Of a stretch of 64,000 nt of DNA, positions 4,434-48,773 are shown one piece after another (within the stretch, counting starts at the first letter, position 1; the number at the start of each line of letters is the position of its first letter). Source of the DNA: Schmidtea nova (lineage: Eukaryota). The stretch covers positions 253,952,001-254,016,000 of the forward strand of contig CM097882.1 of the NCBI GenBank assembly GCA_044892505.1, given 5' to 3'. A program made the translations under genes and the position numbers. A model generated the notes under the pieces. It saw nothing but the letters and a program-made list of their open reading frames with translations. It had not been told where the DNA came from and ran no database searches.

Positions 4434-4548
4434 CAGGGCCGTGCCTGGGTATATGGCCGCCTGCGTGCTAGTATGCATGGCCGCCCTTTGAGATAACATC
4501 AAAATCAAAGAAAAAAATGAAATTTTCATTCTTAATGTTTGTTATTAT
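4434..4548 (-). mobile_element. hAT DNA transposon terminus (CAGGGCCG...), separated from its transposase remnant by the giant LTR insertion
   Basis: CAGGGCCGTGCC follows a (TA)n run, with subterminal GGCCGCC motifs. It is contiguous with 31399 onward once the LTR element and TSD are removed. Confidence 0.55.
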
Positions 4549-4935
4549 TGCTGGTGTGTTGGTTGGATTGACAACTGAGATCCTTATGATTTTATACGTT
4601 AGGGTGATCTCGCCAACATAAAAACATTTCCCCCGCTGACACCCATGATGTATCCCTAACTACTCATCATGTTGGTGCTGTGTCAACGTTGTGAAATGAC
4701 AAGGCAGGTGAGCAACCTTTCGGCTACTATTCCCTTGTTTATTCACGGGTCCACCACTACCGATAGAAGGTGTCTGTGGCTTTCTTTCGGTCCCACTTAT
4801 GCTCTTTACTTTGCTCTAGGGTAATTTATATTTTTGATATCTGCAGCCAAAAAATGAATCCGGGTTTTTGTTACTTTTAATTCTCATACATGCGTCAAAC
4901 AAACAAAACAAATCAAATCATTCATTTATATACAT

Positions 4936-5535
4936 TTATTTGTAGTTCAACAATACAGAGGGTCGGATTACATTTAGTAGTTCTTGCTCGGATAGACCAC
5001 TGAGCAAGTCTACCTCGATTCCTACGCGATCTGCATATGCGCGTCTTTCCCTGCGCTTTTTCGCTCCTAAACGATTCCGTCTCTTTGTGCGTTGTGAGCC
5101 TGCGGGAATCGTATTTGTCACTGTAGTAGTCGTGGCTACGGTCGAGGCATTCTCTGTTTGGGTGCTCGTAGTCACCGCTATCGCGTCTATCCATCGATTA
5201 AAGGTGCTAGCTCTGATCACTGGGCGTAGTTGGTCGGTGATGAAGTCGCGAGTCGATACCTTCAAATAATTCGCCAACTCCAATTTCAGGGCTGCAATCT
5301 CTCTGGCATGGTCCTCAGCTACTCGTTCTGCCCTGTACCTAGCCTGCAGGATGGACTTAACCCGCTCTGGGTTAAACCAGGTAGTCTTAATCCGCTGATG
5401 CTCCTCATTCAGCTGCCTTAATCGATTTTCCAGGACTCGTGAGCGCGCCTTGTGTTCTCGCGCCTCTTGCTTGAAGTCTCTGCCCTCGGTTTCCGTCATG
5501 TCTGTAAATACATCATTAATGTTAGTATCTGTCAT
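4936..5535 (-). CDS. LTR-encoded 199-aa coiled-coil protein with Arg/Lys-rich motif (unknown function)
   Basis: Intact ATG ORF with CAG|ACACATG acceptor context, RTKRRNRLGAKKRRERR motif, and AATAAA overlapping the stop. Confidence 0.6.
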   Translation of the reverse strand: MTDTNINDVFTDMTETEGRDFKQEAREHKARSRVLENRLRQLNEEHQRIKTTWFNPERVKSILQARYRAERVAEDHAREIAALKLELANYLKVSTRDFITDQLRPVIRASTFNRWIDAIAVTTSTQTENASTVATTTTVTNTIPAGSQRTKRRNRLGAKKRRERRAYADRVGIEVDLLSGLSEQELLNVIRPSVLLNYK

Positions 5536-5681
5536 GTGTCTGATTTTTCGGTCATCCTATCGTCATTAAACAGCTCTACCTTATCCTTAGGTTGTTCTCA
5601 TGCACTCAAAACAAAACAAGACCGTTGCACACCGATACATATATTTCAATATCTAAGACAATCATTCTTTCTCGGTATCAA

Positions 5682-6317
5682 TCAATTGAATGTCCTCAAT
5701 TCCTGATCGGCAGGATGCTCGTCGCGGCGAATTCCATTCTCCCAATACATTTCTGGGGCTGGGGTCCAACTCAGCTTATCTTTGTAGATAAACACCTCCC
5801 AGAGGCGAAGCTCCTTGGGCTCGGGGTGTTGTTCCACGGAAACACTTCCTGGTGCATTGGAATAAGTGAAGACTTCCTCAGTGTAGCGACACCGAGGCCT
5901 GTCTAGCAGCAGGTATCCTAATTGGAAAAGAGCCCTTCCGGTCATCATTTCATTGCTCAATACCCAGCGGGGTCGTCTTTGCTCGTCGAGAAATTGGAAG
6001 AACCATCTATCGGTCCTTGGTTCGGCAGGATCCATGGTGGACATCCAATCGGGGTCTCCTTCCCATCGTAATTGTATCGTGAAGGCGCAAGCCGGAACAT
6101 CTGCGGCTGCACTCATATGGTGTCTTGTCCACCGCCGTAGATGTCGACGCGCAGTTTCGCTAATTCTGCGTGGGGCTTCCATTTCTCCCTCGATGGTAGG
6201 GATCCTCCTTGGCCGGACGACGGAACGGATGCGTCGTGGTTTCCGGACGACATAATCTTCCATTTTCATCTGTCGATAGGTGCTCGGACTTCTTTGATAT
6301 TCTTCGGTCTTTATCAT
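5682..6317 (-). CDS. LTR-encoded 211-aa protein with basic N-terminus (unknown function)
   Basis: Intact ATG ORF preceded by CTAAC branch, a pyrimidine tract and CAG|AAAAATG; RKPRRIRSVVRPRR motif. Confidence 0.6.
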   Translation of the reverse strand: MIKTEEYQRSPSTYRQMKMEDYVVRKPRRIRSVVRPRRIPTIEGEMEAPRRISETARRHLRRWTRHHMSAAADVPACAFTIQLRWEGDPDWMSTMDPAEPRTDRWFFQFLDEQRRPRWVLSNEMMTGRALFQLGYLLLDRPRCRYTEEVFTYSNAPGSVSVEQHPEPKELRLWEVFIYKDKLSWTPAPEMYWENGIRRDEHPADQELRTFN

Positions 6318-8035
6318 TTTTCTGAAGACAAGAAGATGTGATTGTGATGAATTTGTTAGGTGCGTGCAATTATTTATAATCGGCGACCTACTCGACTCAA
6401 GAGTAAAACTCTGTAGGTTGCCGTTGGTGTTTCAGTGTTAGATCGGTTCGATGTTCAAGATAGTAGGTAGGTTGTATGTTATCGTCATGTGGTTGAGTGT
6501 ATTCACTATGTCAAGTTGCTTAACTGATTTGGCCACGCAAAAATTCAGTGCAGTTTATGACAATCTGTATTCATTTATGATGATCACTTGATCATTTATT
6601 ATGTTAGAATATCATCATTTCATAGACCATTTTGGTTTATATCTACAGCAATCATACTCACTCGCATCTCAGGTGTTATCTCCATACCTCATTTTCAATT
6701 AACAATGGTCACATCATCCGGGGAACATGTTCGACCCCTTACTCAGGTTAATTGGGTACAGATTGTGCTTGTATTATATTTCGTGGGACTATCCTTTGTA
6801 CCCTTCGTGAGGCGTGTATATGTGTTGGGACATCCTGTGGATTCATGGTTTTACTCCGACGCTAGCACTGTCAGTCTCTGACTCACATGGCTCATGCGTT
6901 GTATATCTCTATCGTCGTCAGTGCTCAATTTATCATGATACTTACCCTCTGCACAAAGCTGTCGTTACTCTACTTGACTTCACGAACGCTGAACACTTCC
7001 TCGTCGATCAACCCGTCTTTTATGTAAACCCATGTACTCGATGTTGTCGTGACAGATGATACGCCCTTCAATTGCTTCTACCCATACTGAGGTTATGATG
7101 ACATGAGATATCCGATGTGCCCTTCCCCCTTCCGCTTGTTAAATATTTAGAACACTTATGGTCCCGCCGCATCAGCACCTCACAACCTAAAGATTGTGTT
7201 GCGCTGAGAGGCCCCAAGAATCCGTCAGGCTGTTAGGCCTCCGGAAAACCTTATGGATTTTAATATGGATAACAATTAAAATTATGAGGGTTTAAATCAA
7301 TAAGAATGCAACTCGAAATTACCTTTTATTCCAATTTACTGCTTCACAAGTTGTCTACAAGTTGCTACTGTTAATCACACTCAGTAAAAATGACACACTG
7401 TCAAACACTGATTTGACTTCAGTATTTATACTGAACCGGTGTTGTTGGTTAGCCAATCAGCATCGAGTATGTGTGTATGTTTGCTTCATTTTTTATGTTG
7501 TCGGCTTTTTGCTGCCTAACTTAACTCGCCGATTTGTTTGGTTAATCATGCGGTAAGTTTTTCTTAGTCATCAATTTATTTTATTTTATTTTTGTTTATA
7601 GGTCTTTGGTGACATCCGCCCACGCGCTGTCATATTCCAATTTTATCTGCTTCGCATGAGTGAGTTTTGACGATTTTTGTTGTTTGATTTATATTTTATT
7701 TCTTTTAGATGTTGCCGCCTATTTTGTTACGCTTTGGTGTTGGTAATTTATTTTGTTGTTATTCTGTATTTAATTTATTTTATTGATTGTATATTATTTT
7801 CAGATGCTGCTCGATTTGGCTAGCCCAACATCACTCGGGGTCCCCTAAAATTGCGTCCCGCAATTACATGCATATACCTACATCAACATACATAAAAAGT
7901 TCGTGACAGAACTTACATGCAAAACCACATAAGGTGGTAGCTTTCATACCCATTTATACAAAGTCACACATTGTCATTGTCATGTTTTTATTGTTTATAC
8001 ACAGTTCAATGTTTCTGGCTCATAGGGGTTGATTT

Positions 8036-8560
8036 TCAGGTCCTTTCACTGGTTGACTGCATTTCGTATCGGGCTTGGATTTGTCGTAGATGACTTCTCA
8101 TCCTTTGTTGGGTTTTTGCTTCTCTTTTAGCACGTCTACACATTATCGTTTGTTGTTGTTTGAGGCTTCTGATTCGATACAGGGTATACGTGATCACGAT
8201 GATCAAGATGATTGTTAATATCGTCATTGTGACTATTCCGACGATGATCCATCTGTTTCGGATTTCGGATTCGATTTGGGTTTGACCTTTGATTGGCTTT
8301 AGGTGATCTTGAAATGTTCTATGGATTTCTCGGATCTTCTCGATTTGATTGAATAGGGTTTGCAAGGGTTTGCGATGATCATGACTGATTCGCATTTTCC
8401 GGATTAATTGTTTCAAGTCTTCTCTGACTTCATTTAGTTGTTTTTCGATCTCTTGGGATATCTCGTTTGACAGGGTTCTTTGGATTTCGGTTGTCGAATA
8501 GTTCATGATTATTGCAGTTAACATAATCGTTAGGATTGATAGGATTTTGAGCCAGATCAT
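8036..8560 (-). CDS. Accessory 174-aa predicted membrane protein (signal/anchor, coiled-coil ectodomain, TM, basic tail)
   Basis: Hydrophobic N-terminus MIWLKILSILTIMLTAIIM, NYS sequon, heptad region, TM WIIVGIVTMTILTIILIIVITYTLY. Confidence 0.7.
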   Translation of the reverse strand: MIWLKILSILTIMLTAIIMNYSTTEIQRTLSNEISQEIEKQLNEVREDLKQLIRKMRISHDHRKPLQTLFNQIEKIREIHRTFQDHLKPIKGQTQIESEIRNRWIIVGIVTMTILTIILIIVITYTLYRIRSLKQQQTIMCRRAKREAKTQQRMRSHLRQIQARYEMQSTSERT

Positions 8561-8633: not shown

Positions 8634-9794
8634 TTACACATCCGTCTCCTCTGGTTCATGGAACCCTTCGTCTTGGAGTTCCATTGGTGATGGTGGTATA
8701 AACGGTAACCACACCACTCTACTTCTCCACATTGCAATTTCATCTTGATACGTTTGAGAGATTTGTATCTCTTCATCTAACAGATACTCCATGTAGTCTG
8801 ATTGTTCGCTCAGAGTTTCGATTTGTCTTTCCATTTCTTCCACTTTTCTCTTCAGGGCTTCTGTTTCTGTTGATTCGGTTTCTACTTCTATGGTTTCTTT
8901 CTCTGCTTTCAGGGTTATTATCTGCTGTTTCAGTTCTTCGTTTTCTTTCGTCAAATTCGTTATATTTTCCTCATACGCTCGGTTTGATTCCGCATGTCTT
9001 TCCTTCACAGCTTTCAGTTCCATTTTCTTTTGGGTCACCACCCCTTGGTAACCATTTACATCTCTTTCCAAGCTTTCTTTTTCCCTGTTCAACTTTTGTC
9101 TTTCCGCTTCCTCTTTTTGTCTAATGCCTCGCATTTCTCCATTTATCATCTGTATTTGCCATTGCGTTTTCTTTAGTTCCTTTGCTTGTTCTCGAATAAA
9201 TCGTTGCCGTTTTCGACTCCATTCTTTGTTTGTCTGTTCTTGTCGTTTTCTCTGTTCCAATTCCTCTTTCAATTCGTCTATCTCTTGATACAATTTCCAA
9301 TCTTCGCTGTATGCTGTCCTTCTGATTATCTCTTTGGCTTCTTTATACACCCGTTTCGACTCCATCTTCCAATGTCTCGCTTGAGCTTTGATAGCTAGTA
9401 GTTTTACCTCCATCTTTTCCTCTTGTTTCTCCCTTTCTTCTCTTCGCGTTTTCATCATATTTTTATAATGTTCTGCTTGTTTCCTCATCCACTGATAGAC
9501 CTCTTCTATCTTCTGTCGGCTTCGTGAATTCGTTCCTTTTAGCTTCTCTATTTGTGTTGTCAGTTGTACTATCTCTTTATTCACTTCCTCGAGTTCTAGT
9601 TGGTATAACTCCATTCGTCTCTCGCATTTTAGTTTCTCGTAGAAATTGTTTGTCATCACTTCGTGTAATTCCCTGGTTCTTTGTTCTACTTCCACTTTAC
9701 ATCTCCTTTCGATTTCTCTTTCTATTGCTTCTCGTTCGTTCGCCATCTCGTTTCTCGTTTCATCTTCGATTACATGTTCATTTGCGTTTTCCAT
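8634..9794 (-). CDS. Accessory 386-aa long coiled-coil protein ending EPEETDV
   Basis: E/K/R-rich heptads throughout, same purine-rich coding bias as the polyprotein, CAG|AATG start context. Confidence 0.75.
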   Translation of the reverse strand: MENANEHVIEDETRNEMANEREAIEREIERRCKVEVEQRTRELHEVMTNNFYEKLKCERRMELYQLELEEVNKEIVQLTTQIEKLKGTNSRSRQKIEEVYQWMRKQAEHYKNMMKTRREEREKQEEKMEVKLLAIKAQARHWKMESKRVYKEAKEIIRRTAYSEDWKLYQEIDELKEELEQRKRQEQTNKEWSRKRQRFIREQAKELKKTQWQIQMINGEMRGIRQKEEAERQKLNREKESLERDVNGYQGVVTQKKMELKAVKERHAESNRAYEENITNLTKENEELKQQIITLKAEKETIEVETESTETEALKRKVEEMERQIETLSEQSDYMEYLLDEEIQISQTYQDEIAMWRSRVVWLPFIPPSPMELQDEGFHEPEETDV

Positions 9795-9883: not shown

Positions 9884-11296
9884 CTACTCCAACCATCCTT
9901 TCGTTGACTTCGTGTTCATCACTGTTGTACTTGCTTTCTTTTCGATCTCCAACTCTACATATAAGTTGTCATCGTACAACATTTCCCACATTGTTTGGTG
10001 TGGTATGAATTTTGGTTCTCCAGTCGCTAATGAACATTCTGTGGTTGGTCTTTTGTAAGCTTCGTGCTTACCATCAATTTTGAATATTCTCACGATCGTT
10101 TCTTTCGAGTTTTTGACTCTCATTATAGCCTTTGTTTCTAGTGGCCATTCTAATATGTCGTCGTAACCACCTTTACACAACGCAAAGAATAATGACACAT
10201 GCGTTTCCTTTCCTGATCCATCTCCATTTGGATAAATTCTCATCCGGACTTTGTATCCATTTTTCCACAGATAGAATGGTGGACTTGTTACCGACACCTG
10301 ACTTCCTGCTTTTGCTGCTGCGAACTTTTCGTTGAAATTCTTAATTTTCCATACATATGGTGCGACCGGTAAACTCTCGATATCCTCCGCGTCTCGCACC
10401 CACATTTGGTGTCGTACATTTACTTCCTTTACTAATGTCTCTATGACTTTGATTTTCTCCATCATTTTCTCTCTGGTGAGCTCGAATTGTTCTCTCGTTT
10501 CCAGCAATAACTCCGTCATTATCCTCTGAGATTCGATTTCTTTTCCCAGCTTCTGTATGGTTTGCTCCATTTCTTTTAAATTTTCTGTTAGCATCTCTGC
10601 GTGTTGTACTGTCTCTGTTTCTAAATGCTCTTTCATTTCTTTGCTCGTTTTCTTTACTACACATCCTTGTTTGCTCCATACGCACTTTCTTGGTCTTGAT
10701 TCGCATTGTTCCCAATGTTCTTTCAACATCACCTCTTCTCTGGCTCCACAATTACTTGGACAAATTCCTCTGAATTTTCCGCACACTTTCTCTTCTGCTA
10801 CGTTGAGATGCTCTGTTTCGATTACTTCTCTCGTCTCTTTCTGGGCACAGTATTGACACTCTATTATCTCTGCTTTGCACTCATCCTTGTGATTTTTCGA
10901 CTGCTTGATGGTTATCGTCTGTTGACACTTTTCACATATCGCTTTCTTGTTTTCGCATTTTCCCAGATGTTGTCTTAACTCAATTATTGGTCCTTTCCAT
11001 TCACATGGTTGGTTTATACACTCGGTTTTTATCTTCCAGATCTCCTTTTGTATTGCTTTATCTGGTTTCGTCTCGTTGATTAGTAGTTTATCGCCACACT
11101 CTGGACACTTTCTTGTCTCACTTTCACTGATTATTTGCAATATACACTTGGTGCACATCCTGCATCCACATTCCGTTTGTCTCGGTTTTAACAGTAGATT
11201 TTTACACTTTACACACGTCACATTTACTCCCCATTGTCGATTCTCTCTTCTTAGAATCTCGATTGTTTGGTAGTCTGCTTCGTTTTCTGCTCTCAT
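9884..11296 (-). CDS. TRAF: TRAF-family protein (RING, TRAF zinc fingers, coiled coil, MATH), 470 aa, intronless
   Basis: RING CVKC...CGCRMCTKC...CPEC; zinc fingers such as CINQPCEWKG...HLGKC and CVWSKQGC...H; MATH YVWKIKNF...SPPFY...GYKVRMRIYPNGDGSGKETHVSLFF...DDILEWP. Confidence 0.93.
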   Translation of the reverse strand: MRAENEADYQTIEILRRENRQWGVNVTCVKCKNLLLKPRQTECGCRMCTKCILQIISESETRKCPECGDKLLINETKPDKAIQKEIWKIKTECINQPCEWKGPIIELRQHLGKCENKKAICEKCQQTITIKQSKNHKDECKAEIIECQYCAQKETREVIETEHLNVAEEKVCGKFRGICPSNCGAREEVMLKEHWEQCESRPRKCVWSKQGCVVKKTSKEMKEHLETETVQHAEMLTENLKEMEQTIQKLGKEIESQRIMTELLLETREQFELTREKMMEKIKVIETLVKEVNVRHQMWVRDAEDIESLPVAPYVWKIKNFNEKFAAAKAGSQVSVTSPPFYLWKNGYKVRMRIYPNGDGSGKETHVSLFFALCKGGYDDILEWPLETKAIMRVKNSKETIVRIFKIDGKHEAYKRPTTECSLATGEPKFIPHQTMWEMLYDDNLYVELEIEKKASTTVMNTKSTKGWLE

Positions 11297-11385
11297 TCTA
11301 CAACAATATTTACATCAATTTCCCCATATTTTTGATTTTTCTGGTTCTTTATTTACACGTATTTACACAATTTTCCGCTTATTCA

Positions 11386-11736
11386 CTATACATCCTCCGT
11401 TGAATCTGGCTCTGGATACGCGTCTATCTCATTTACAATCCAGCTCGTCCAACTATCCGGTATCTCCTCCTCTTCATGTCTCGTTAATCGATCAATTTCC
11501 TCTGCTTGCCAGTTGTTTACTTCATTTAATGTTCGGTTCTCGTTCTGTAATTCGTTTATCTGTAGTTGTTGAATCTCGATTTTGTTCATTGCTTCGAAAT
11601 TACAGTTATAACTCTCGGTTAATAATTGCGTTTTTGCCGTCAACTGGCTCTGTAATTCATTTACTGTTCTGGCTAGCAGGTCACATTGTACTTTCCATCT
11701 TGTCATCATCGACATCTCTGTGGTTCCTTGATTCAT
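11386..11736 (-). CDS. Accessory 116-aa coiled-coil protein ending EPDSTEDV
   Basis: ATG ORF between the polyprotein and TRAF, heptad pattern, TAG|AAAAACGATG context. Confidence 0.6.
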   Translation of the reverse strand: MNQGTTEMSMMTRWKVQCDLLARTVNELQSQLTAKTQLLTESYNCNFEAMNKIEIQQLQINELQNENRTLNEVNNWQAEEIDRLTRHEEEEIPDSWTSWIVNEIDAYPEPDSTEDV

Positions 11737-11858: not shown

Positions 11859-14800
11859 CTATACAACTATTACTGGTTTTCCTTCGTACAGTTCCTCGTC
11901 CTCGATCTGTACCCACATCTCCTCGTGTTTCGATCGTCTTTTCAGTTCCTCTCGTACTTCTTTTGGTAGTTTTATGTTGTAGTTCGTGACCTTTACGTCT
12001 GGCCATTTTACTGCTATGGTCTTATTTCTCATGCCATATCTCCAACATACTATCATGATCGTTATCAGTGGGATACACGCTATGAATACTCCCATGCTGA
12101 TTAAACCCATTATTGTTTTCCCAATGCTCCTTCTTGGAGTCTCACTTTGGTTTATCATCACGCCATATTGACCTTTCCATTCTGCTTCCCATTGTTCATA
12201 TTGTTGTTGTCTCTGTCTGACTTCTTCGATCACTTTCTCTGGTTCCCATCTTTCTTGTTGATTTTGTAGTATTTCCTCCGTCTCTGTTTGTTCTCTTTTC
12301 TGACTCAATTCTCGGAATTCTAACTTGCGGGTTCTCCCCTTTATCGTTATGTTCCTTGGCGTGTAATAGGTTTCGCACCTTTCTTGTGGATTTCCTTGTG
12401 CATCTACTTCTTCGATTGCACACACTTCGTATTCTGCGTTTGTTTTCAACCTCCTCATTTCTACCTCGATTGTTTCCCTTTTATCATTTGATGTCTTTTG
12501 ACAGTTTCGTGGAGACTTTCCCATACTGTTTGGCATTAATGTCCAACAGATTTCTAGGACCTTTTTATGGATCTTCCATATTATCAGAGTCGTTGATTCC
12601 GGTTCGTTTTTTGTTGACGTCCCTTCTGTTGTCTGTTGAGTTCCTTGACTGTTGGTTGTCGTGGTTCTTCTTGACTTTCTTTTCCTTTGTCGACTTCCTC
12701 CCATTTCGATCGTTCTTGTACCGTTAATTTGCTCTGGCGTCTTGTACAGTCTGCACTCCAGGCTTCTTTGTATTACTTCTCTTATTCTTCGGATTACGCA
12801 AATTTCATATGCTTGTCCGACTTCGAATCCATTTAGTTGAAACGGGATTCCTCGTTCTCTCGTCCTGCATTGCGGTAGTACGTGACTGGTCGATACTCCG
12901 ATGTATTTTCTCCAACACATCCCAATTGTTCTCCGACCAATGTTTTTTATCTCCACGGTTACTACTTCATTCGCAATCGTTTCTTGATCTTGTTTCTTTC
13001 TTTTTGGGAACTCAATTATCTCCTTTGCTTGGAACACTTTACACTCGCTTGTTCCTGGTCTGTTTCCGTTTGCTGCCTTTTCCATGAGACATAGTTCACA
13101 TTTTCTATCTGTATCTATTTCGGTTATTTCGATTTCTTCATTTGTCTCTGCTTCTCGACTTTCTCTTGTTTCGCTGATTCCAATTACCTCATTGTTTCGT
13201 CCCCAACATCTTCCGTTCGTTGTTCGTTGGTCTTGGATATTTACTAACGTCATTACGCTAATATCTATGTCCTCCATGATTCTCTTAATGAGGATTAATA
13301 TTAATGCTACACATATCAATTCCGGTTGGAATGTTAATTTTCCCGCTGAATTTTTGGTTATTCTTTCTTTCTCCGTTCGGTTTCCGATTCCTTCTTCTGC
13401 TTCAGATTGATTCTTCCCTTTCTCCGATTCCACTTCTGTTCTTCTCGTTGTCTCTTCGCTTCTTTTCCCAATCCATTTCTGTATCTTTAGCGCTTCTGTT
13501 GCTTTATATAATTGACATGCAGTTACTTGAGGTGCTTTTGGTTCTCCTCTCTGCTTTACTGCGCATATTATGTATGATTTTTCTTTCTCCAATCCTTTGA
13601 TTTGGATGACGTCTCGCTTCAAATCTGATAATATACACTTCAGCGTATCGTTTTTCTTCAGATTTTCTTTCCAGCATATTCTTTCGTATACTTCATTTCC
13701 TCTGATTATTTCCAGCGTGACGTATTGTTTCTTGGCTTCGCCCTGTCCGATGATTGTTATCAATATCGCAATACACAACATTTCTGGTCTCAAAAGTAGA
13801 CTTCCTGTTCGTTTTCCATAGTTCGCATGTTCGTCTTTTGTTCCACTGTTTTCTCGTTCCTCTGCTTCTCCTTTCTTGTCGTTTCTTGTTGGCTTTGGTT
13901 CTTCTTGTCTTTCTTTTTCATTATCCTCTGTTCTTTTGTTGTCATTGTCTTCGTTGTTCTTTTCGCTGTTACTTTTGTCGTCGTAATCTCCGTAACCACC
14001 CCCTGGTCCTTTCGAAATGTCGTCCTCGACATTAATTTCTTCAATCAATCTTTCATACGCTTGAACCGCGAGTGTGCTAGACTCGAATTCACGTATTTCC
14101 ATATCCTTGGATGGTTCTATGTTTTCTAGTCCACTTTGCTTGATCGTTTCTTTGGCATTTGCCCATTCATTCACATATTTTCTGAACAAATCTTTCCATC
14201 TTCCCGTTCGTTCCTGTTCTTTTGGGTTGTTCGTAAATTTCAAATCTCTTCTCTTCAAGAATTCTTCTACTATCTCTGGCTTTTTGTGTCTTAGTAACGC
14301 GCTTCTGATACACCAATTCTGATTCTGTTCCATATTGTCATTGATCTTGAATGCCGGTTCCTTGGTGATCGGATTCACCCATGTTAGTAATGCTCTTGTT
14401 TTCTCTATGTCGTGTATCATTACTGTCAGACTGAAATTCTTTACGTTATTCGCCAGGTATTCTATCTCCTCTTGTCTCTTGATGGACTTTATGAACTTGA
14501 TCATTTCAAAGTTGTTCCATTGTATTGCGATATCTATGATGGAATTATTCTTTCCATTTTTCCCTTCGATTTTTGCTCCTGCTTCGTATAATTCACTTAG
14601 CGCTTTAAAGTTCGTCTTCTTTCTTGCTGCGATTATCATGATTGTATCTCCGTTATCATCAACCGTATTCATGTCCGCTTCGCATTTGACCATTGCTTTC
14701 GTTATTTCTAGCACTTCGTTTTCTTTCTTTCGACGTAATGCCCAGTGTATCGGCAATCTCCCATCCTTTGATAATAGGAATGCCACTGGCATTTGATTCT

Positions 14801-17800
14801 TGATCGTTTCTATGTCACTCTCGTTATAATCTCCTTGTGCGTATCTGTGCACTTTCTCTGTAATTGCTCCTAGTATCTCCAACGAGTTTTTATTCTCCTT
14901 GAATTCTGATAGTCTTTCTTGCGTTTTTGCTACGATTGCGTCTAGTCTCTCTTGATTATCAGCTTTTGCATTGAACAACACTGCTTTGCTTCTTATTCGC
15001 GTTTGCATCTGTTTCATTCGTTGGTCTTGATACACTGCTTGTCTGAAGAATTGTGCATACTTCAATGCTTCCATCAGCTCTTTATATCGCTTGCTTATTT
15101 CTTTGTGCTGCTTTTGGATGTCATAGAAATGTTCAAAGCTCATATCCGGATTCCATTGCTTATCACACCATTTCCTGATTAATCCGAATAATTCTTTCTT
15201 TCTGTCTTCCAACTTGTATTCTCTTGGGTTCTCGCTGACCCGTAGCGTATCTCTCGCTATTAACACTGCAAGTGTTTTTGGATCGTATGTTACTTCTAAT
15301 AGATGTTTCAGTAACACATTTTCTCCCCTTATGAACACTTCATTACAATCTATGACCCACGAATCTCCTTCTGGTCGTTTCCACTTTAGCAATATTCTCC
15401 AGGTTTTACTGTTCTTTACCCCGATTGCTTGTTTCATGATTGATCCTCTGGTTAGTTCATCGATTTCCCACGTGGCATTTTCCGTAATATACTTCAGTAT
15501 TCGGTGATTCGCTCTGTCAATTGCATGATTCAAGAATGTTCGTCCTTCTTTATCTTTTGCCATCCAATTCGATCTGGTGTTTCCGAATAGCTTGATTATT
15601 TCATCGTTTCTTCCGTGAATCGTCATCATCATGAGTGGAGTGATTCCTTCCCAATTCACTTTGTCAATTTCTCCTCCACCTTCGAGTATCATTTCCACGA
15701 TCTCTTTCACTTTTTCGTTTCCACTGTGCTTGATTGCATTATGTAACGCGGTATTACCATCTTTGTCTTGTAGATTCAATGTTTGAGGGATTTCCTCTAG
15801 CAGCGTTCTTGTTATTGGATGCGCTGTTCTGTCTTTTGCATACTCCATTACATACTTTCGAACTTCTGACAGTATATTGAAATCGAGCCACCATTTCCAT
15901 TCTGGTATAATTTCTCTGGTCCTCTTTGCCAGTTCTTTGATGTCTATTGCTTCTCTTCGATTGTCTTCTAGACTTGTTTGCGGCTTTTGTTGTACTCGCA
16001 ACATACTGATTCTCGCCGTCTGTGATCTTGTCATTACCCGTTTCTCTGGTGATAGAGTTGCTGTCTTTGGTATTTTCCTGCATCGACATGCATTCACGTA
16101 TATTGGTCTTACCAATGGATTGTTCACCAATCGTACTCGCACATTATTTTCATTCACTGTCGTGATTTCGTATGGCCCTTTGCCTGGTCGTTGGAGTTTC
16201 TTGACCGTACCGGGTATTATCTCTGGTGTCTCAATTATCACCCAATCTCCAACTTTTAAATCATGTGCTTTCACATTCTTTTTCTGATCATGTAGATCTT
16301 TATAACTCTCTTGATAGAACTTGATGTTTAGTTCCGCCGTTTTCCAGATTTCTTGCATTCTTTCTTTGAACTTTGTAACGTAATCGTCAACCTCCATGTA
16401 CTGTGATAATGGTGGTTGGTATTCTAAATCGATCGGTAAGTTGCAATCTCTTCCGTACATCAGTTGGAATGGACTTAGCTTTGTTGCCGCATGTATTGAC
16501 ATTCTATATGCCATTAAACACAGGTTTATATATTCATCCCAGTCAGTCTGATGTTTACTGACGTAATTCGACAACATGCGTATTAATGTTCCATTGAATC
16601 TTTCTGTTTGACCGTTCGTTTGCGGATGGTATGGGGATGTTCGTAATTTCGCAATTCGGAAGTAATTCGTAACTTCGTCTAATATTTCACTCATGAAATT
16701 CGTTCCTTGATCCGTTAGGATTTTCTTTGGTGTTCCGTATCTGCAGCATATCTCTTCCACCAATATTCTTGCGACTGTTTTCGCCTTTTGATCCGGTATT
16801 GCGAACGCTTCTGGGAACTTTGTTAGATAGTCTGTGACTACTAATATGTATTGATTTCCCTTCAAACTTTCCGGCAATGGTCCAACTACATCCATTGCTA
16901 TCGTCGCCATAGGTTCTGCAGGTATTGGCATTGGTTTTAGCGGTGTTTTCCACTTCGTTCCGACGTTCTTTCTTGTCGCACAGGTTAAGCAGTTCTTTAT
17001 CCATTCTTTCACATCATCTTCCATGGTTGGCCAAAAATACTTTTGTCTCAATCTCCCGATTGTCTTTTTCGCTGACATATGTCCGCCTAATTTTCCGTCA
17101 TGATATTGAGTCATGATTTCCTTTCGTCTATTCGCAGGTAAGCACATTAATCTTCGTTCTCCATCTTGTATCAATAACCATCCTTTTTCCATCACGTATC
17201 TATGTTGGTATTTTTGCATATGTTCGCGCAACGTTTGGTTCTTGCCGAATATTTCCAGTTCCCTTTCTTTCAGATACTTGCTGATCAATCCCAACTCCTC
17301 GTCTTCGAGTTGATCTTTCCTTAATTCGCTGAAATCCAGATCCTCCGCTATTAATGCACATATTTTCAGGGCGTTTAGGTTCACCAATTCTGGAAATGTA
17401 AACCTTGACATGCAATCCGCGTTTGCATTTGCTTTTCCTGCTTTAAACTTTATGAATGGCGAGTATTCTTGCAACTGCATCGCCCAACGCATCAATCTAC
17501 TTGATGATTCTTTATGTTGACCTAACCATACTAGCGGTTGATGATCCGTCGTGATATATATTTCATGACCCCACAGTAGGTACTTGAAATGCTTGATTGC
17601 CAATATTATCGCATAGGCTTCTCTTTCCGTGACTGAGTAATTCTTTTCATGCTTTCTGAATGTTCGACTGTAATATCCGATTACTCTTTCCTTGCCTTCT
17701 TCGTCAAATTGGCCTAGTACTGCTCCTGCTGCGTATCCACTTGCATCTGTTGCCAACAAAAATGGCTTCTTAAAATCTGGATGGACTAATATTGGTGCTG

Positions 17801-20800
17801 TAATCAGCTTATCTCGTAATGTTTCAAATGCTGCTTGCTGCTCTTCTCCCCATACAAACGACACATCTTGTCTTACCAATTCTTGCATTGGCTTTGATAT
17901 TCCTGCATAGTCCTTGATAAACTTGCGATAATATCCACACAATCCCAAAAATTCTTGTATTTGAGTCACTGTCTTTGGTGGTGGACATTCTTTGACTTTT
18001 TCGATATTCCTTGGATCTGGTTCTTTTCCTTTTGCTGATACAATGTGACCTAAGAATGTCACTTTTTCTTTTGCCCAATCGCACTTTGACGGCTTCAATT
18101 TCAGCTTCCACTGCCTCAATTTCACGAACACATTTCTGATGTCTTGTAAGTGATCTTCAAATGTTGCGGAGTAGATCAATAGATCGTCGATATACACCAT
18201 GCATTGTTTTATGCCATGTGTTACGAAATTCATGCATCTCTGGAATGATGCTGGCGCGTTTGTTAACCCAAACGGCATTTTCTTGAATTGGTACAGATCT
18301 CGTCCGATTGTAAATGCTGTCTTTTCTTTATCCTCGTCTTTCATTTTGATCTGCCAATATCCGCTTTTTAAATCCAGTGACGTGAAATAAGCTGCTCCTT
18401 GTAACGTCAATAACATTTCATTTATGTCTGGCAGTGGGTACGTATCTCTTTTCGTAACTGCGTTCAATCGTCTGTAATCGATACAGAATCTCTGAGTTCC
18501 ATCCTTCTTTTTTACCATCACCACTGGGAATTGCCAGGGTGAGCAACTAGGTTCGATGACCTCTGCATCTAACATCTTTTGTACCTCTTCTTCTGCCACT
18601 GCTTTTTGAGCTTCTGCCAATTTGTATGGTCGTAATGCGATTGGCGTTTCGTCCGTCAACGGTATCGTGTGTAATGTTACGTCACATGTTCCTAAATCCA
18701 GATCTGATGCTGCGAATATATCTTTATATTCCATCAACAGTTTCTGTAACTGTTCTTTTTGTCGTTCGTCTAACAACACACTGTCGATTTTCCATGGTAA
18801 TTCGTCTTTGCTTTTCTCGTTCTTGTCTGGTATTTCGATTTCGGACATGGGTGTCAATTTACCCAATCTCTCATTCTCGTATATTATCTTGTCCTCTTCG
18901 TCGAAGTTTACCAGATTGATCGGTATTTCTCCTTCTTGGTTTATCGTGACCAATTCTCTTGCTATTGGTAATTCTTTCTTTGCTTCGAACTTCTTACTTG
19001 GTTCGAATATCATGTCTCCTTTGATTGTCGAATCGATCTTGACGTAACACATCATTTCATGTCTCGCTGGCACTACTATTTGTTCCGCACTTGCCACTTT
19101 AACTTTCATCCTGCAGATTTTCCCTGTCCTATCTTTTAACTTCATTGCTCCTAGATCGATTACGATTTCCTTAAACAGGTCTGGCATCAGGTCAGTTCCA
19201 ATAATACATGGTACACTCAGCGATGGTATTACAGCGATGTACGTGTTGATTTCTGCACCTCGATGCTTAATTTTTACAAACCATCTTCCGGCTACTTCTA
19301 CTGTCTCCTGACTGCACGCGATTACATGTACATTCGTCTTCTCAATTTCTCCTTGGTTCTTCTCTGGTATATAATTAATGTCGATCGCCGAAATATTCGC
19401 GCCTGTATCGATCATCGCTTCGATTTCTCTTCCATTTATTTCTACGGTTGTTGTTAAAATCGGTCCCATGTTTGTGGACATAACCGCTATCGTGTGCGTG
19501 TCTTCTAACGAATTTACACTTCCACCTCGTTTTACTTTGCATCCTTCTGGAATTATCGGGTATATACTTGTCATCGGCATCATCTGCATCATATTCGGTT
19601 TCGCTTTGTATATCGGTTCGTTATACATTGACTGGGGTGGAGCACTGTATCTCCAATTCTCAACTGCACTCTTTTCGTTATACTGTGGAATCTGGTTTAT
19701 ATTCGCTTGTCCTCCTTGATCGTCATCGTCATCATCATCATTGCTTGAATCATCTTGTGTTCGATATCCCCTTACTCTTTCCCATAGTCCTTTTCTTTCT
19801 TTCTTTAGTTGTCGCCTTGCTTGTTCATCTTGCATTATCTTTTTGAATTTCCTTCCGACATCTTCATTTGTTCCTCTCATTTTTGCAAGTATCTTTAACA
19901 ACCTCTTTATTCGATGTATGTCTTTTGAGTGTCCGTGTAACACCATCGTTTTCGCAAGGAATGGCAAAAATCCTACTACCATCTTCCAATTCACTTTCTT
20001 CTCTCTCTTGTAGATATCGAAACACGCTAACATTTGCGTTATTATCACCCTGACGATTTGTATTATCAATATAACACCCAGTATTCCAGCCATCATTTGT
20101 CCAAATATCAGGAATCTTCCCCACATTGCCTTCATCATATTTTCTGTGGCTTTCTTGAAATGTGCCGGTGACAACAACAGTTCGTAATTCGGTCCTTCTC
20201 GATAATTCGTTCCTCCCGTTATTGTTACGATATTTGACAGTAATGCTTCTCTTCTTGCCGGGAATAATATATTCTGCCTTGCCGCTTCTAAATCTTTTGG
20301 ACTATAGATTCCGTTGTTTGAGACATCTACGTCACTGAACTGTCTATCCTTTGACAACTGCATTAGCTCAAATTCTCTTGGTGCTAATACTTCAGTTCTT
20401 CCTGGGAACATGACCCATTTGCCATCTGGCTTCTGATAAAGCGGTCCGTACGCGTTACTACAGTTGAACGGATTTGGTTCAAAACTTGGTGGATTGATGA
20501 TTCTCGTCACCGGTTGAACGTATCGTACTTTTCCTTTATAATCGATTTCTAGTTCGTTTGTACATTGTCCAGGTTTCAACTGCGTTGTTGCTGCTAGCGA
20601 TGCGTGTGTCTTTTCGCAAATGTATACATACATTGCTTCTCCGACCACTCTTCCGAAATGTCCTTCTCTCAGTGGTAATAATGGCATCGCGCTATCTGGA
20701 TTCGTAATCGCTACGGCCAACTTTGTCTTTAATATTTCTCGATTCAATATACAATCGTTGTTTATCAGATCATAGTACACTTTTTGCAATGAGGCTTGTC

Positions 20801-23800
20801 CTCTATGGAATAAGAAATCCATTTTATTATTCACATACAAGTGTAGCTTGATATCCATTGTGTCGATCTTGGGTTTCGCATTCGGCACTTCTTGCTTTGA
20901 CACGTATATTCCTGGATAGTTTGTTTCGTATACTGTTGTACTGCACTTAAGGGTTGCTTTCCCTTTTATGAATCTCATGCCCACATCCTGATTTGTGGTT
21001 ATCAACACTGTTGGTGTGGTTCTCATCTCTATCCGTTTCTCTCTATGATCCGGTTTCAATTGTCTTTTATTCTCTAAAGCCTCTTTGAGATGTTTTGCTC
21101 TAGCTTTGTCATCATCATCTTCTTCTTGGAACGTTTTGCCTTGAATTTCGTCGAACTTTGCTCCTTGTAGCAGTTGTAATTGACATTCGTTCACCTTTGG
21201 TTTGTACACCAAAGTTGACATTCCCGTTTGACACATGCTTCTGTCAATTTTACACATGGATAACGTTTTCATTTCTCCTGTTGTTGGTTCGAAGAATGCT
21301 TCGTAGCTTTTCAGTTCGACTATATACGTATCCATTACCACTAAGTTGGTTGCGGGTACTCCGAATATTGGGTAGGTTTCTCCTTGACAATATCCTTCTC
21401 CTCCCGTAATCCGTCCTGCTACATAATATGTCTGCTGCAACATCATTCCTGGCTTTCCTTTTATCTTGATTTTATCTCTCGTTGTCACTTCTCCATGTTT
21501 AAACAATGCTTCGCAGTCTTCTCCTTGCAACACGATTGGTTCTCTTTCGGTTCCTGGCATGACAATTGCCGAATAATGTCCTCTCCCACAATAGAATGCG
21601 AATCTCGTCTTCTGTACCTTGCATTCATTCACCATTGTCTTTATTAGTTCTGCCTCTTGATACACGTGGTACCATTGTTCCTTTTTGATCTCTTTCAATT
21701 CTACTGGGGTTGCATCTTTGCATTGCTCCGTACCTCTCAATGAGTACTTTTCTCCTAACTTCATTTGATCACAATCAAATACTTCAAATGTTGTTGCACC
21801 CTCTGTGCTTAACAACCATACTAACATCATCATGATTATCGAGTTCAAATTCAACGTCGATCTTCCGTTTCCTTGCATTGTTTGTCTATTCTCCATTTCT
21901 CTCAATACTCCTTCGAGTTTCTTTCTCATCACGTTAGAACCTTCTTTTGTCTGATTCTCTTTTATGAACTTTTCCCATCCTCCTTTCCTGAGGATATATG
22001 GTTCAATTTCTTTCTCGATAATCATCGTCGTATTTTTAATATGTCTTCCCATCGGACTTGACTTCGGGCTTCCTCGGCTTAGCGTTAACAAATTGTATAT
22101 TGTATACGAGATTGCTACTAGATATTTACTGTCCGTCTCTGCTCCGTTAAGTAGCCTTTTTATTAACATAGTGGTTCCTTGCCAATCTAGATGATTCGAT
22201 TTTGTTTTTGCCTTTATCAATTCTGGCATAATCGGTGCTATCGCATTGTGTAGCATCCTTGCCTTTGTACTGGGTTCGTTTATCCGCCACAAATTCTTTA
22301 ATTCTGGATCAATTATCGCCAACACATCCATTATCGTTTTGGTGAGCCATTCTTCTCCTTGACAGACTTGATTCTCCTCTTTGCCTCTGATTTCTGCGAT
22401 TTTGTCTAATTTCTTTAAGCAAATCTCCCATTGCTCTTGTCTCCTTTCTTCCCTTGTTTTTGGGATTGCTGTTGTTGGATCTATCTTTGGTCTTCCTCTT
22501 GGTCGTTTTTCCATTCCAGTTCCGGTTTCTACAAATCTCGTTGCTCTTCCTGTTTCTTCCGTAACATCTCTTCCTTCGTTTGCTCGCTGTTCTAACCATC
22601 TTTCCATTTCTTGAGTAAACTGGGGTTGTTCTTGTTCGTCTTCCGAATCGTTCACCATTTCTATGACTACCTCTTGCTCCACTTCTTGATCGTCGATTTC
22701 TGCTGGTGACGTTATTGGCATCTCTATTATTCTGTCAAAAATATTCGCCGTTGGTTTTTGAGTCAACTTTGTTAGTTCTTCTATCGCCTCATCACTATCT
22801 GTTAGTATCTCATCGACGTCATACGCTTCTGGCGGTGTTCTCTCTCTCGTTTTGATTGGTGTTGTCCTTGCTTGTCCCGAACTTGTTCCTGGGGTCATTG
22901 TTGACTTCATCGGACTTGGTGTACTCATGCTTCCTTTCGCTTTCTTTTCCTCTTTGAACTTCAGTGGTTGACCCACTATTTGTGCCACTGTTAGCGTATT
23001 CATTAGATCCAATTGCACTGGTGTCAGCCAGATTTCCAAATTGTTATCCAACGATCGTCCTTGATGTTGCAGGTGGAATGGTAGTTCGTACATCAGTTTC
23101 TCTTTAACACTTTTCACTTTTTCCGTTAGCATCACCCAAAACTCTTCTTTTCTCTGATTCGGATACATTATCCTCAAATGTATTTTCTGTGGCGTTTCTT
23201 CCGCAAATTCTCGGTTTCTCCACTTTTTTATTACGTCGTCTAGTTGCTCTGGACACCACTTGTTAACTCTCTTGTATTCTGCTATCGCTTTAGCTACTTT
23301 TCTCAAGTTCGTTATGTCTTCTCCATTTGAGATTATGAAACCTGCTAAACCTTTTATTGTTTGTCTTTTTCCCCGAGTATTTCCTCTCAACAGCTCGATC
23401 AATTCACTCGTTTTCTGTTTCTCCAATTCTGCCCATATTACTGCAGTTTCTGGTCCGTCTAAGTCCGTTGGTAATAACCTCCTTGTTACCATACATATCC
23501 GTTTCGTATTCCGTTCATTTCCGTCTTCTCCTTCCGGATCTTCTTCATACACGCCTCTTTTCACTTTCCAACATTTCTCTTTGTTATCCCATTGCTTCTC
23601 TACTGGCGTCAATCGTCGTCTATTAAGATCCAATTCTCCCAATATTGTCTCCCATTCTGGCTTCATCTGCCAGTTCCGATAGATTTCTACTATCTGCCTC
23701 AGCTTACGCATAACGTCCTCTTGTCGTTTCTTTTTCCTTTCCTCATCCCTTGGTGTTGCTCTTTGCACATCATCCATTCTGATGACGTGTATTGTCTGAT

Positions 23801-26753: not shown

Positions 26754-28088
26754 CCCGATTCCACTATCTTGGAATACTGTACTAGTTTTCTTTACTTCTA
26801 GTTCACCACTTGTTTCTGAATTCGACTCTTCTTCTCCGCTACTCTCTGTTTCGTTATCTCTTGATTCGCTTCTTGTTCTGTTTTCCCTGACTAGTTCACT
26901 GTCTATCGTCTCTACTTCGTTTTGTACTTCTAGATCTTCTGGGGTTTCTTCTTGGTTCTCTTTATTACTCGAATTATCGCTGATCTCTACTTGTTTGTTC
27001 TTTTGCTGCTTAGGCTTGTTACCTGTTCTTGTCCTTTTTGCTGCTTTTCTTTCTGCTTCCGTTAAGATTGGTATTATACCTGATCTTGTTTCTCGTCCCT
27101 CAATTTTGTCTATTCCTCAACTTCTTATATTCTCAACTGATTTTCTACTCCGCTTTTGCTTTGCTTCTTCTTTGATTTGTTTCCTTTGATTGCTCTGACT
27201 GCTAGATTGCTTTGAATTGCTTGATTGATTTGTTTCCTTAAAACAAATAATCACTTACACGATACGTCCCCGTTATCGTGTTTCTCGTCCCTCTCACGGG
27301 TGTAGTCATAATTCATGAAGATCCCCATTTTTCCCATTCCCCTTGATTTTAAGTCTATTTAAATTATCTATGCAGTCGTATCAATTATCTATTCTTTATC
27401 AAATACACCAATTACTTTTCCCCAGTTTCCCAATTACTTTGTCGCTCAGCGCTCTTATTATCCCCTTTACTTTTTCTCAGGCTTCTCTGGCTCTGAGTTC
27501 AAATTTCCCCTTATCTGTCGACTAGTCTGTTTTTCGACTACTCACTTTATCTCCTATTCACACTACGTTTACTACTTCATTTCAATTCTCATCTCTACTC
27601 ACCTTTAATTCAACTGACATCTCTCGTTGGCCTGTTGGGCTTTCCAATCAGCGCCTTTCATCTCACCCTTTATCTCGACTTTATTACTCTCAACATCACT
27701 CATTATCTCATTAGCCTGCTGGGTTTTCCAGTCAGCGCTTTTATGATCCTCCATTTACCTCTTTGCTGTCGACTTCTAACTGCTCTTTACTTTTCATCAC
27801 TTTTCATACTGTTACTCCACATACTATTCATCATGCTTCATTCATCCCCATATTTTCACATTCATACTTTCATTCTCATGCATACTTTTATCATGCTCAT
27901 CAATCTCATTATTTTACACTCATATTTTTATTTATTATTTTTCAACCCGATTCATTCTTGCTTCAGGACCCTCAAACCCTCTATTATTTACTTTACTTTT
28001 CCTCGCTAAATTCAATTCCATCCCGGTTCATGCGCTCTAACACTGTCCGCAGATATCGAATTCACTTTTTCCCACAAAGATCGATTTA

Positions 28089-28106
28089 ATCCCGGCTGAG
28101 CCCCCA
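28089..28106 (-). promoter_or_regulatory. Primer-binding site TGGGGGCTCAGCCGGGAT (tRNA-Pro-like)
   Basis: Lies 6 nt inside the 5' LTR; 16/18 match to the MLV tRNA-Pro PBS TGGGGGCTCGTCCGGGAT. Confidence 0.85.
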
Positions 28107-28499
28107 AATTTATGCTGGTGTGTTGGTTGGATTGACAACTGAGATCCTTATGATTTTATACGTTAGGGTGATCTCGCCAACATAAAAACATTTCCCCCGC
28201 TGACACCCATGATGTATCCCTAACTACTCATCATGTTGGTGCTGTGTCAACGTTGTGAAATGACAAGGCAGGTGAGCAACCTTTCGGCTACTATTCCCTT
28301 GTTTATTCACGGGTCCACCACTACCGATAGAAGGTGTCTGTGGCTTTCTTTCGGTCCCACTTATGCTCTTTACTTTGCTCTAGGGTAATTTATATTTTTG
28401 ATATCTGCAGCCAAAAAATGAATCCGGGTTTTTGTTACTTTTAATTCTCATACATGCGTCAAACAAACAAAACAAATCAAATCATTCATTTATATACAT

Positions 28500-29099
28500 T
28501 TATTTGTAGTTCAACAATACAGAGGGTCGGATTACATTTAGTAGTTCTTGCTCGGATAGACCACTGAGCAAGTCTACCTCGATTCCTACGCGATCTGCAT
28601 ATGCGCGTCTTTCCCTGCGCTTTTTCGCTCCTAAACGATTCCGTCTCTTTGTGCGTTGTGAGCCTGCGGGAATCGTATTTGTCACTGTAGTAGTCGTGGC
28701 TACGGTCGAGGCATTCTCTGTTTGGGTGCTCGTAGTCACCGCTATCGCGTCTATCCATCGATTAAAGGTGCTAGCTCTGATCACTGGGCGTAGTTGGTCG
28801 GTGATGAAGTCGCGAGTCGATACCTTCAAATAATTCGCCAACTCCAATTTCAGGGCTGCAATCTCTCTGGCATGGTCCTCAGCTACTCGTTCTGCCCTGT
28901 ACCTAGCCTGCAGGATGGACTTAACCCGCTCTGGGTTAAACCAGGTAGTCTTAATCCGCTGATGCTCCTCATTCAGCTGCCTTAATCGATTTTCCAGGAC
29001 TCGTGAGCGCGCCTTGTGTTCTCGCGCCTCTTGCTTGAAGTCTCTGCCCTCGGTTTCCGTCATGTCTGTAAATACATCATTAATGTTAGTATCTGTCAT
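28500..29099 (-). CDS. Copy of the 199-aa LTR ORF in the 5' LTR
   Basis: Identical translation to 4936..5535. Confidence 0.55.
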   Translation of the reverse strand: MTDTNINDVFTDMTETEGRDFKQEAREHKARSRVLENRLRQLNEEHQRIKTTWFNPERVKSILQARYRAERVAEDHAREIAALKLELANYLKVSTRDFITDQLRPVIRASTFNRWIDAIAVTTSTQTENASTVATTTTVTNTIPAGSQRTKRRNRLGAKKRRERRAYADRVGIEVDLLSGLSEQELLNVIRPSVLLNYK

Positions 29100-29245
29100 G
29101 TGTCTGATTTTTCGGTCATCCTATCGTCATTAAACAGCTCTACCTTATCCTTAGGTTGTTCTCATGCACTCAAAACAAAACAAGACCGTTGCACACCGAT
29201 ACATATATTTCAATATCTAAGACAATCATTCTTTCTCGGTATCAA

Positions 29246-29881
29246 TCAATTGAATGTCCTCAATTCCTGATCGGCAGGATGCTCGTCGCGGCGAATTCCA
29301 TTCTCCCAATACATTTCTGGGGCTGGGGTCCAACTCAGCTTATCTTTGTAGATAAACACCTCCCAGAGGCGAAGCTCCTTGGGCTCGGGGTGTTGTTCCA
29401 CGGAAACACTTCCTGGTGCATTGGAATAAGTGAAGACTTCCTCAGTGTAGCGACACCGAGGCCTGTCTAGCAGCAGGTATCCTAATTGGAAAAGAGCCCT
29501 TCCGGTCATCATTTCATTGCTCAATACCCAGCGGGGTCGTCTTTGCTCGTCGAGAAATTGGAAGAACCATCTATCGGTCCTTGGTTCGGCAGGATCCATG
29601 GTGGACATCCAATCGGGGTCTCCTTCCCATCGTAATTGTATCGTGAAGGCGCAAGCCGGAACATCTGCGGCTGCACTCATATGGTGTCTTGTCCACCGCC
29701 GTAGATGTCGACGCGCAGTTTCGCTAATTCTGCGTGGGGCTTCCATTTCTCCCTCGATGGTAGGGATCCTCCTTGGCCGGACGACGGAACGGATGCGTCG
29801 TGGTTTCCGGACGACATAATCTTCCATTTTCATCTGTCGATAGGTGCTCGGACTTCTTTGATATTCTTCGGTCTTTATCAT
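29246..29881 (-). CDS. Copy of the 211-aa LTR ORF in the 5' LTR
   Basis: Identical translation to 5682..6317. Confidence 0.55.
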   Translation of the reverse strand: MIKTEEYQRSPSTYRQMKMEDYVVRKPRRIRSVVRPRRIPTIEGEMEAPRRISETARRHLRRWTRHHMSAAADVPACAFTIQLRWEGDPDWMSTMDPAEPRTDRWFFQFLDEQRRPRWVLSNEMMTGRALFQLGYLLLDRPRCRYTEEVFTYSNAPGSVSVEQHPEPKELRLWEVFIYKDKLSWTPAPEMYWENGIRRDEHPADQELRTFN

Positions 29882-48463: not shown

Positions 48464-48773
48464 AATATTTTTCCATTAATTCATGGCATTTTACATCATG
48501 AATTGTGGAGTTGCAATATTTTTGATATAAATTGCCTATAAATTTTAAAAATAATATAAAAATAATGATCAAAATAATGATAAAAATAATGATAAAAATT
48601 ATGATAAAAATATTATGATAAAAATTATGATAAAATATCAATGATGTATATCAAGTGTGTATACACACATTCAATTCAAAATATCGTAATGTATATTTAT
48701 TGATTATGATTGGTCAAAATAATTTAAAAATTACTATATAAACGACTTATAAAATTAAAATAATCATTAAAAA

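Follow-up and report, generated by a model that had tools for sequence, protein, structure and literature searches.

The closest described relatives of the locus reported here are the Burro elements, which carry MATH, BIR, BCL2-like and ankyrin motifs (PMC6431247, section 7). The same section places a MATH_TRAF_C domain in the Burro1 polyprotein and in an accessory open reading frame (ORF) of a Dugesia tigrina element, the latter with a 5,140-aa ORF1 (PMC6431247), and TRAF cargo in Burro is already known at the level of a domain. According to the available part of PMC8532177, Burro1 is expressed and lies under PIWI control. The Burro1 IAP guards stem cells against caspase-mediated death, as reported by Lee et al. 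(2026, Dev Cell; cited in the accessible text of PMC13465017). In our literature search, with Jurka 2007, Grohme 2018 and Lee 2026 outside its scope, we found no RING-bearing full-length TRAF in Burro, no account of its selection and no TRAF-IAP pair.

The window analysed here, a stretch of 64,000 nucleotides, contains a 26,846-bp element that resembles Burro and GYPSM1 in its length of about 27 kb, multi-kilobase LTRs, single ORF of around 5,000 aa, pol, ankyrins and TRAF MATH cargo, as well as in its gag CCHC motifs, its mononegavirus-like env in frame between gag and protease, and its protease, RT, RNase H and integrase order. Judged by the published description rather than by consensus sequences, it classes as a Burro-type giant Ty3/Gypsy element. 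For the published elements, only the MATH_TRAF_C domain is named, in ORF1 or in an accessory ORF described as 'upstream' (PMC6431247), whereas here a whole TRAF, complete with RING and zinc fingers, lies downstream of ORF1.

The element and its TRAF gene

The features of the element, in window coordinates, are as follows.

4545..4548 (left) and 31395-31398 (right), no strand: TTAT, 4-bp target-site duplication
4549..7830, minus strand: 3' LTR, 3,282 bp, twin of the 5' LTR
5535-4936 and 6317-5682, minus strand: ORFs of 199 aa and 211 aa within the 3' LTR, also present in the 5' LTR copy
8036..8560, minus strand: 174-aa accessory ORF with two hydrophobic stretches; weak Pfam matches only, under the cut-off
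8634..9794, minus strand: 386-aa coiled-coil accessory ORF, no Pfam match
9884..11296, minus strand: TRAF ORF, 470 aa, a single open frame with its ATG at 11296 and its stop at 9884
11297..11318, minus strand: putative splice acceptor, 22 nt ending TAG/A before the TRAF ATG (AG at 11299-11298)
11386..11736, minus strand: 116-aa coiled-coil accessory ORF, directly upstream of the TRAF in all four subfamilies
11859..27116, minus strand: ORF1, 5,085 aa stop to stop
28088..28106, minus strand: primer-binding-site-like stretch just inside the 5' LTR, presumably resembling tRNA-Pro
28113..31394, minus strand: 5' LTR with TG...CA ends, 100% identical to the 3' LTR over 3,282 bp

Identical LTRs, TG...CA ends and the TTAT duplication together indicate a recent insertion. 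ORF1 encodes, in order, gag with CCHC knuckles, an in-frame Monjiviricetes-type fusion glycoprotein (Pfam E 9e-72), protease, RT, RNase H, integrase and ankyrin repeats. Ahead of the fusion glycoprotein, where Burro elements have a BCL2-like motif, it possibly also contains a Bcl-2-like bundle (model pLDDT 57), for which Bcl-xL, A1 and BAX are the top Foldseek rows, yet at E 0.45 or worse; a sequence search with this stretch gave no match and an atlas search no usable match. Four accessory ORFs follow between ORF1 and the 3' LTR, in the order 116 aa, TRAF, 386 aa and 174 aa. At the C-terminal end of the 386-aa ORF is a DEGFHE motif (8634-8670, minus strand), kept in subfamilies A, B and C (described below), which we take to resemble an acidic beta-TrCP degron and which could possibly serve as a ligase decoy. 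The 199-aa LTR ORF has homologues in the LTRs of other subfamilies, and neither it nor the 211-aa ORF has a Pfam match. Other mobile elements share the window: a plus-strand fragment of another Burro-like pol (2-1059; 78% identical to 18199-19255), a Polinton/Maverick-like element (44576-56723) with a protein-primed DNA polymerase B, an integrase with a chromodomain and an A32-type ATPase, and BEL/Pao LTR retrotransposon ORFs (59925-63851; DUF1759, RT and Peptidase A17) that are split by a stop.

The product of the TRAF ORF comprises a RING (aa 28-70), TRAF-type zinc fingers (aa 93-232), a coiled coil (aa 229-304) and a MATH domain (aa 314-451). The C-terminal MATH/TRAF-C domain that defines RING-type TRAFs is present, both by Pfam (MATH_2, E 9e-27, and TRAF-mep_MATH, E 2e-25, over the cut-off) and by fold. 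Among solved structures, the protein matches the MATH domains of TRAF5, TRAF1, TRAF2 and TRAF3 (E 1e-27 to 5e-25) and the RING-zinc-finger region of TRAF6 (E 3e-13). Its AlphaFold model (mean pLDDT 82) contains a continuous 76-residue helix (229-304), the predicted coiled coil (TRAF-N), followed by the MATH sandwich, and the best Foldseek matches of the model are TRAF1, TRAF3, TRAF2 and TRAF5 (E 3e-18). The N-terminal RING and TRAF-type zinc fingers can be recognised from sequence, though their Pfam matches fall under the cut-off (zf-TRAF, E 7e-5; TRAF3_RING, E 2e-4): all eight zinc ligands of the RING align, with Cys in place of His as in host paralogues, and the Cys/His spacing indicates five TRAF-type fingers.

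The original prediction had described a full-length TRAF between pol and the 3' LTR of an LTR element, with element-like codon bias, and this description was borne out. The intact ORF falls in the interval from the end of ORF1 (11859) to the 3' LTR (7830-4549), and its third-position A/T frequencies (0.45/0.14) match those of ORF1 (0.45/0.15) rather than those of four host TRAFs (0.30-0.34/0.26-0.42). Its codon usage favours ORF1 over host TRAFs by 74 nats, whereas a host TRAF held out of the codon reference as a control goes the opposite way, by 51 nats.

The 22 nt ahead of the TRAF ATG are invariant in 33 of 33 copies, and a T-rich YAG stands right before each accessory ATG in subfamilies A, B, C and D. 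Because 44 of 167 internal ORF1 Met codons have a YAG within the 8 nt ahead of them, a single such site is weak evidence, and the weight comes from repetition and invariance. Both splicing in cis from an LTR leader and trans-splicing of a spliced leader, which occurs in flatworms, would fit these sites. No genomic copy of a spliced RNA was found among 20 TRAF copies that lack an RT 22-mer. A junction at the acceptor in one locus (L245) was rejected as a spliced copy, as it is not an exact GT-AG removal. Four sequencing runs, their type unrecorded, have coverage across the entire element and are uninformative on expression.

Copies, selection and origin

A protein search with the element TRAF gave 89 scored matches of 3,495 candidates, 95-100% identical and 86 of them stop-free. 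At all 30 TRAF loci fetched, the flanks of the element were present over 4.4 kb. For a sample free of bias towards the TRAF, we selected copies through RT instead: of 40 scored RT matches, 39 were copies other than that of the window, and each was read over 10 kb. The TRAF was whole in 33, partial in 3 and deleted in 1, and the remaining 2 copies were cut by other DNA within the 10 kb. The original prediction had named absence of the TRAF from other copies as an outcome that would count against it, together with neutral evolution, and neither was seen.

The TRAF is carried by several subfamilies. Exact 22-mers of subfamily A, the window's own, gave 119 TRAF and 101 RT matches, with 0 for reversed controls; relative to A, the TRAF of subfamily B is 52% identical (165 exact 22-mer matches), that of C 46% and that of D 36% (1,089 exact 22-mer matches). 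Summed over A, B and D, exact 22-mers indicate at least 1,373 element-borne TRAF loci. RING, zinc fingers, coiled coil and MATH keep their order across all four subfamilies (36-52% identical), and the subfamilies that keep the TRAF are only 64-73% alike in DNA. In a further type, E, MATH occurs alone inside a 4,706-aa ORF, and ORF1 is 53% identical to that of the window over 2,848 aa.

Subfamily D differs in its cargo. A gene with BIR and RING domains (IAP; BIR E 8e-16) directly follows the TRAF in 20 of 20 position-ordered copies, and no RT was found in the 10 kb read of these copies. TRAF without IAP is found in three subfamilies (A, B and C), and TRAF and IAP as neighbours in one (D). In the window's element, a Pfam search found BIR neither in ORF1 nor in the accessory ORFs, and it found no MATH in ORF1. 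One D-type element, with LTRs 99.98% identical, lacks the TRAF, the IAP and the 116-aa ORF, the last of which encodes a conserved EPDST at its end and was lost along with the TRAF. We also observed a D locus (L114-L115-L194; G000:C2:452995882-453023812) that has adjacent TRAF and IAP genes between 5.6-kb LTRs 99.9% alike and is without RT, integrase or env. Within subfamily A, many copies with large gag, env or pol deletions retain an intact TRAF (L239-L258; 12 of 20 full length and stop-free).

Selection was measured in 32 collinear RT-anchored copies plus that of the window (n = 33), 7 of the 39 having been excluded for deletions or insertions. The pairwise dN/dS of the TRAF is 0.103 (codon bootstrap 0.076-0.141), an interval that is too narrow because the copies are related; post-insertion decay raises the ratio and never lowers it. 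By part, the values are 0.047 for the RING, 0.129 for the fingers, 0.073 for the coil and 0.099 for MATH; for comparison, we obtained 0.025 for RT, 0.020 for integrase, 0.091 for the ankyrins, 0.070 for the 116-aa ORF and 0.128 for the 386-aa ORF. The TRAF is undisrupted in 29 of the 33 copies and the 116-aa ORF in 33 of 33. In subfamily D, dN/dS is 0.16 for the TRAF and 0.23 for the IAP, which are disrupted in 6 and 3 of 21 copies, respectively. An earlier TRAF value of 0.088 was discarded in favour of the RT-anchored sample, having been computed on the 30 best protein matches, a choice that biases it low. Purifying selection maintains the TRAF in the element copies and, as all of its domains are constrained, a folded TRAF is probably made.

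In two trees, computed without four long-branch host rows and near-duplicates, the element TRAFs of subfamilies A to D group as a single clade (99/98; 100/98). This clade sits within a triclad group of host, Dugesia and Dendrocoelum TRAFs, apart from TRAF2, TRAF3 and TRAF4 (100/99, 100/100). No single host paralogue emerged as the donor; the sister group consists of three database proteins, P0004, P0005 and P0048 (92/97). In a tree of MATH alone, the polyprotein MATH of type E (Burro1-type) joins the element group (94/95) and the host two-exon genes form their own clade (99/98), and a clade of element TRAFs and polyprotein MATH to the exclusion of P0004, P0005 and P0048 is neither rejected nor demonstrated (AU p 0.26). 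The simplest reading of these trees, which is likely with moderate support, is one old capture, kept whole in some lineages and trimmed to MATH in another. The source was likely the planarian host's own TRAF family. The original prediction had proposed that a host TRAF was captured by an LTR element, and this is supported.

Two further hints in that prediction fail. The RING does read CGCRMC, with Cys for His, in 30 of 30 copies. This change is not specific to the element: host TRAF RINGs in the same genome read CGCRYC or CGCKAC, and Cys replaces His in 19 of 99 classifiable database relatives, including Dendrocoelum and echinoderm TRAFs, which rules it out as a signature of a decoy. The absence of introns, likewise offered as a hint of capture, is no proof of retro-capture, as the host TRAFs L031, L066, L073, L088 and L199 are also single open frames. 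L031 was considered as element cargo and rejected, since it lies outside the LTR pair of the adjacent element.

The best matches of the genome's own host TRAFs are Dendrocoelum and Dugesia proteins (44-46% identity), which points to a triclad planarian as the host. By eye, we counted about 70 non-element TRAF/MATH loci among the best 150 of 2,419 candidates, a lower bound. About 63 of these lie in a tandem cluster (G000:C2:405-455 Mb) and form their own clade, many consisting of a RING-finger exon and a MATH exon. No element cassette gene was found within 1.5 kb of the top 30 host TRAF loci. The suggestion that elements inflate TRAF counts therefore holds for DNA, with at least 1,373 element loci against the roughly 70 (or more) others, but does not extend to the host expansion, which is a clade of its own and no artefact. 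The expansion reported from transcriptomes (available part of PMC6109357) has its own real basis, and elements dominate the DNA counts. Part of a host TRAF was also mobilised a second time, independently: the 5' half of L031 (RING and zinc fingers, aa 1-219) is dispersed in at least 11 decaying copies (L062-L072, for example, G000:C3:97177311-97177967), of which one, L062, adjoins a fragment that by eye resembles a proteasome alpha-subunit.

Candidate roles of the element TRAF

We favour a reading in which the element TRAF, captured once from the host and kept intact by selection, acts as a survival-signalling adaptor in cells with an active element, and assign it a probability of about 0.5. 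The ORF would be translated from its own spliced RNA, and the coiled coil and MATH domain would trimerise, as in all TRAFs. The trimer, its preference among host receptors or adaptors altered, would bind to these and recruit an IAP-type ligase, encoded by the element or by the host, and the output through TRAF-TAK1-JNK/p38 would shift towards survival and away from death. The benefit to the element would be that planarian stem cells surviving its activity transmit new insertions.

This is the best reading because an IAP gene adjoins the TRAF in D, the largest subfamily, and because of the literature on the Burro1 IAP and on RNAi of host TRAFs. In the available parts of these reports, RNAi of host TRAF-1/2 or -2A/B results in more cell death (PMC7586133), and host traf2-1 restrains infection-driven tissue degeneration, in work that includes a TAK1/MKK/p38 screen (PMC4993586). 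Several observations stand against it. The window's own subfamily A is without an IAP, and the Bcl-2-like bundle of ORF1 is unconfirmed. The TRAF is also dispensable for some copies, being deleted partly or wholly in 4 of 39 RT-anchored ones, and the young D-type copy noted above has neither TRAF nor IAP. Aside from these points, the NF-kB arm of TRAF signalling in the host is uncertain, and a Rel-homology search of the genome was blank, the search itself being flagged as uninformative. A more ambitious form of the survival-adaptor reading, which we advance only tentatively, is that of a transplanted TRAF-IAP survival module, in which a whole TRAF with a retuned groove, paired with an IAP and expressed from its own spliced message, was spread to more than 1,000 sites by an RT-less lineage; jumping genes would then be the main genomic source of TRAFs and a regulator of stem-cell death.

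Selection demonstrates use and not the kind of use, and a decoy or an E3 ligase would yield the same dN/dS. As a dominant-negative decoy, the element TRAF would form mixed trimers with host TRAFs or occupy their docking sites, damping the sensing of element RNA or cDNA with no need of an IAP. Planarian TRAFs do respond to poly(I:C), in a RIG-I-like route (available text of PMC7958881). Two changes in the protein also fit a decoy. The loop-1 position of the RING is hydrophobic (I/L) in 6 of 8 host RINGs, but K in subfamily A and K/N in B; we take this position to have a role in E2 binding. In the MATH groove, the host's PDxRS...IASGSP has become IDGKHE...LATGEP in A, with R-x-Y-x-x-GDG unchanged, the residues presumably having the roles that they have in the TRAF groove. 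The RING, however, is one of the parts under tightest constraint, for which a pure decoy has no need, vertebrate TRAF2/3 likewise lack the hydrophobic loop-1 residue, and the Cys-for-His change is not peculiar to elements; we consider a decoy possible but doubtful.

Viral accessory ligases act against host restriction factors, and the RING of the element TRAF might similarly ubiquitinate such a factor, for example a silencing protein, caught by a retargeted MATH. The retention of all eight zinc ligands, the constraint that is strongest on the RING, a groove unlike that of the host, and an accessory-gene layout with acceptor sites reminiscent of complex retroviruses all speak for an E3 ligase, which is nonetheless unlikely: the Burro1-type lineage, retaining MATH alone in its polyprotein, does without the RING, the ligase has no known substrate and the E2-contact position is non-hydrophobic in A and B. 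It is more improbable still that the TRAF is now kept mainly for aiding the animal, in stress survival or regeneration, as with the Burro1 IAP, a precedent cited in the available part of PMC13465017. The RT-less subfamily, with its constrained TRAF and IAP at about 1,000 copies, is in keeping with such cargo, but constraint spans whole element lineages and all accessory ORFs alike, and none of the loci examined was a domesticated member of the element clade, fixed and free of LTRs. A benefit to the host is not exclusive of the survival-adaptor reading. That the TRAF is a neutral passenger or a one-off insertion, as the copies without it might suggest, is almost certainly wrong, being refuted by a dN/dS of 0.10, with an interval well under 1, in copies that were sampled without regard to the TRAF; the gene is, moreover, kept across subfamilies that have diverged widely in DNA, and its codon usage is fully element-like.

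Relation to known systems

Host signalling genes are usually carried by large DNA viruses and, to our knowledge, are rarely found whole and under selection within LTR elements of animals. Should death-versus-survival signalling be set by the element TRAF, the Burro1-IAP story would gain a second arm, with a bearing on transposon success in immortal stem cells. With about 20 element TRAF copies for every host TRAF locus found, work on planarians has to keep the two sets apart, be it in counting the TRAF family, designing RNAi probes or analysing piRNAs. According to the available part of PMC6824462, mRNAs with TRAF zinc-finger and ankyrin domains are over-represented among the targets of SMEDWI-3 piRNAs; as Burro elements carry both domains, this suggests that element-derived piRNAs could target host TRAF messages.

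The triclad TRAF2A/B-like family (Dj-TRAF2A, Dendrocoelum TRAF-2, -4 and -5, and Smed-TRAF-2A/B in the available part of PMC7586133) has in common with the element TRAF its domain order, Cys-type RING, frequent lack of introns and clade. The element TRAF is, however, only 27-33% identical to this family and has element codon usage and an altered MATH groove; host triclad TRAFs lie in tandem clusters, whereas element TRAFs are dispersed in hundreds to a thousand copies. The vertebrate TRAF2-cIAP survival module pairs a TRAF trimer with an IAP ligase, which is paralleled by the TRAF/IAP pair of subfamily D (binding putative) and by the match of the MATH fold to TRAF1/2/3/5, although the element TRAF does not branch with TRAF2.

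The closest parallel lies within Burro itself. The published account lists BIR and does not give selection, copy number or origin (PMC6431247), whereas subfamily A has no BIR. IAP-bearing Burro1 combines BIR cargo with MATH inside ORF1; the window's element has neither, but its sisters D (BIR) and E (MATH) do. The Burro1 B-IAP, as presented in the available part of PMC13465017, is an anti-death cargo in the same element family, comparable to the BIR and RING gene of D; that study tested the IAP, whereas here TRAF and IAP are adjacent in D and the TRAF occurs alone in three subfamilies. The element TRAF is real, selected and abundant, and its full-length form extends the known cargo of Burro.
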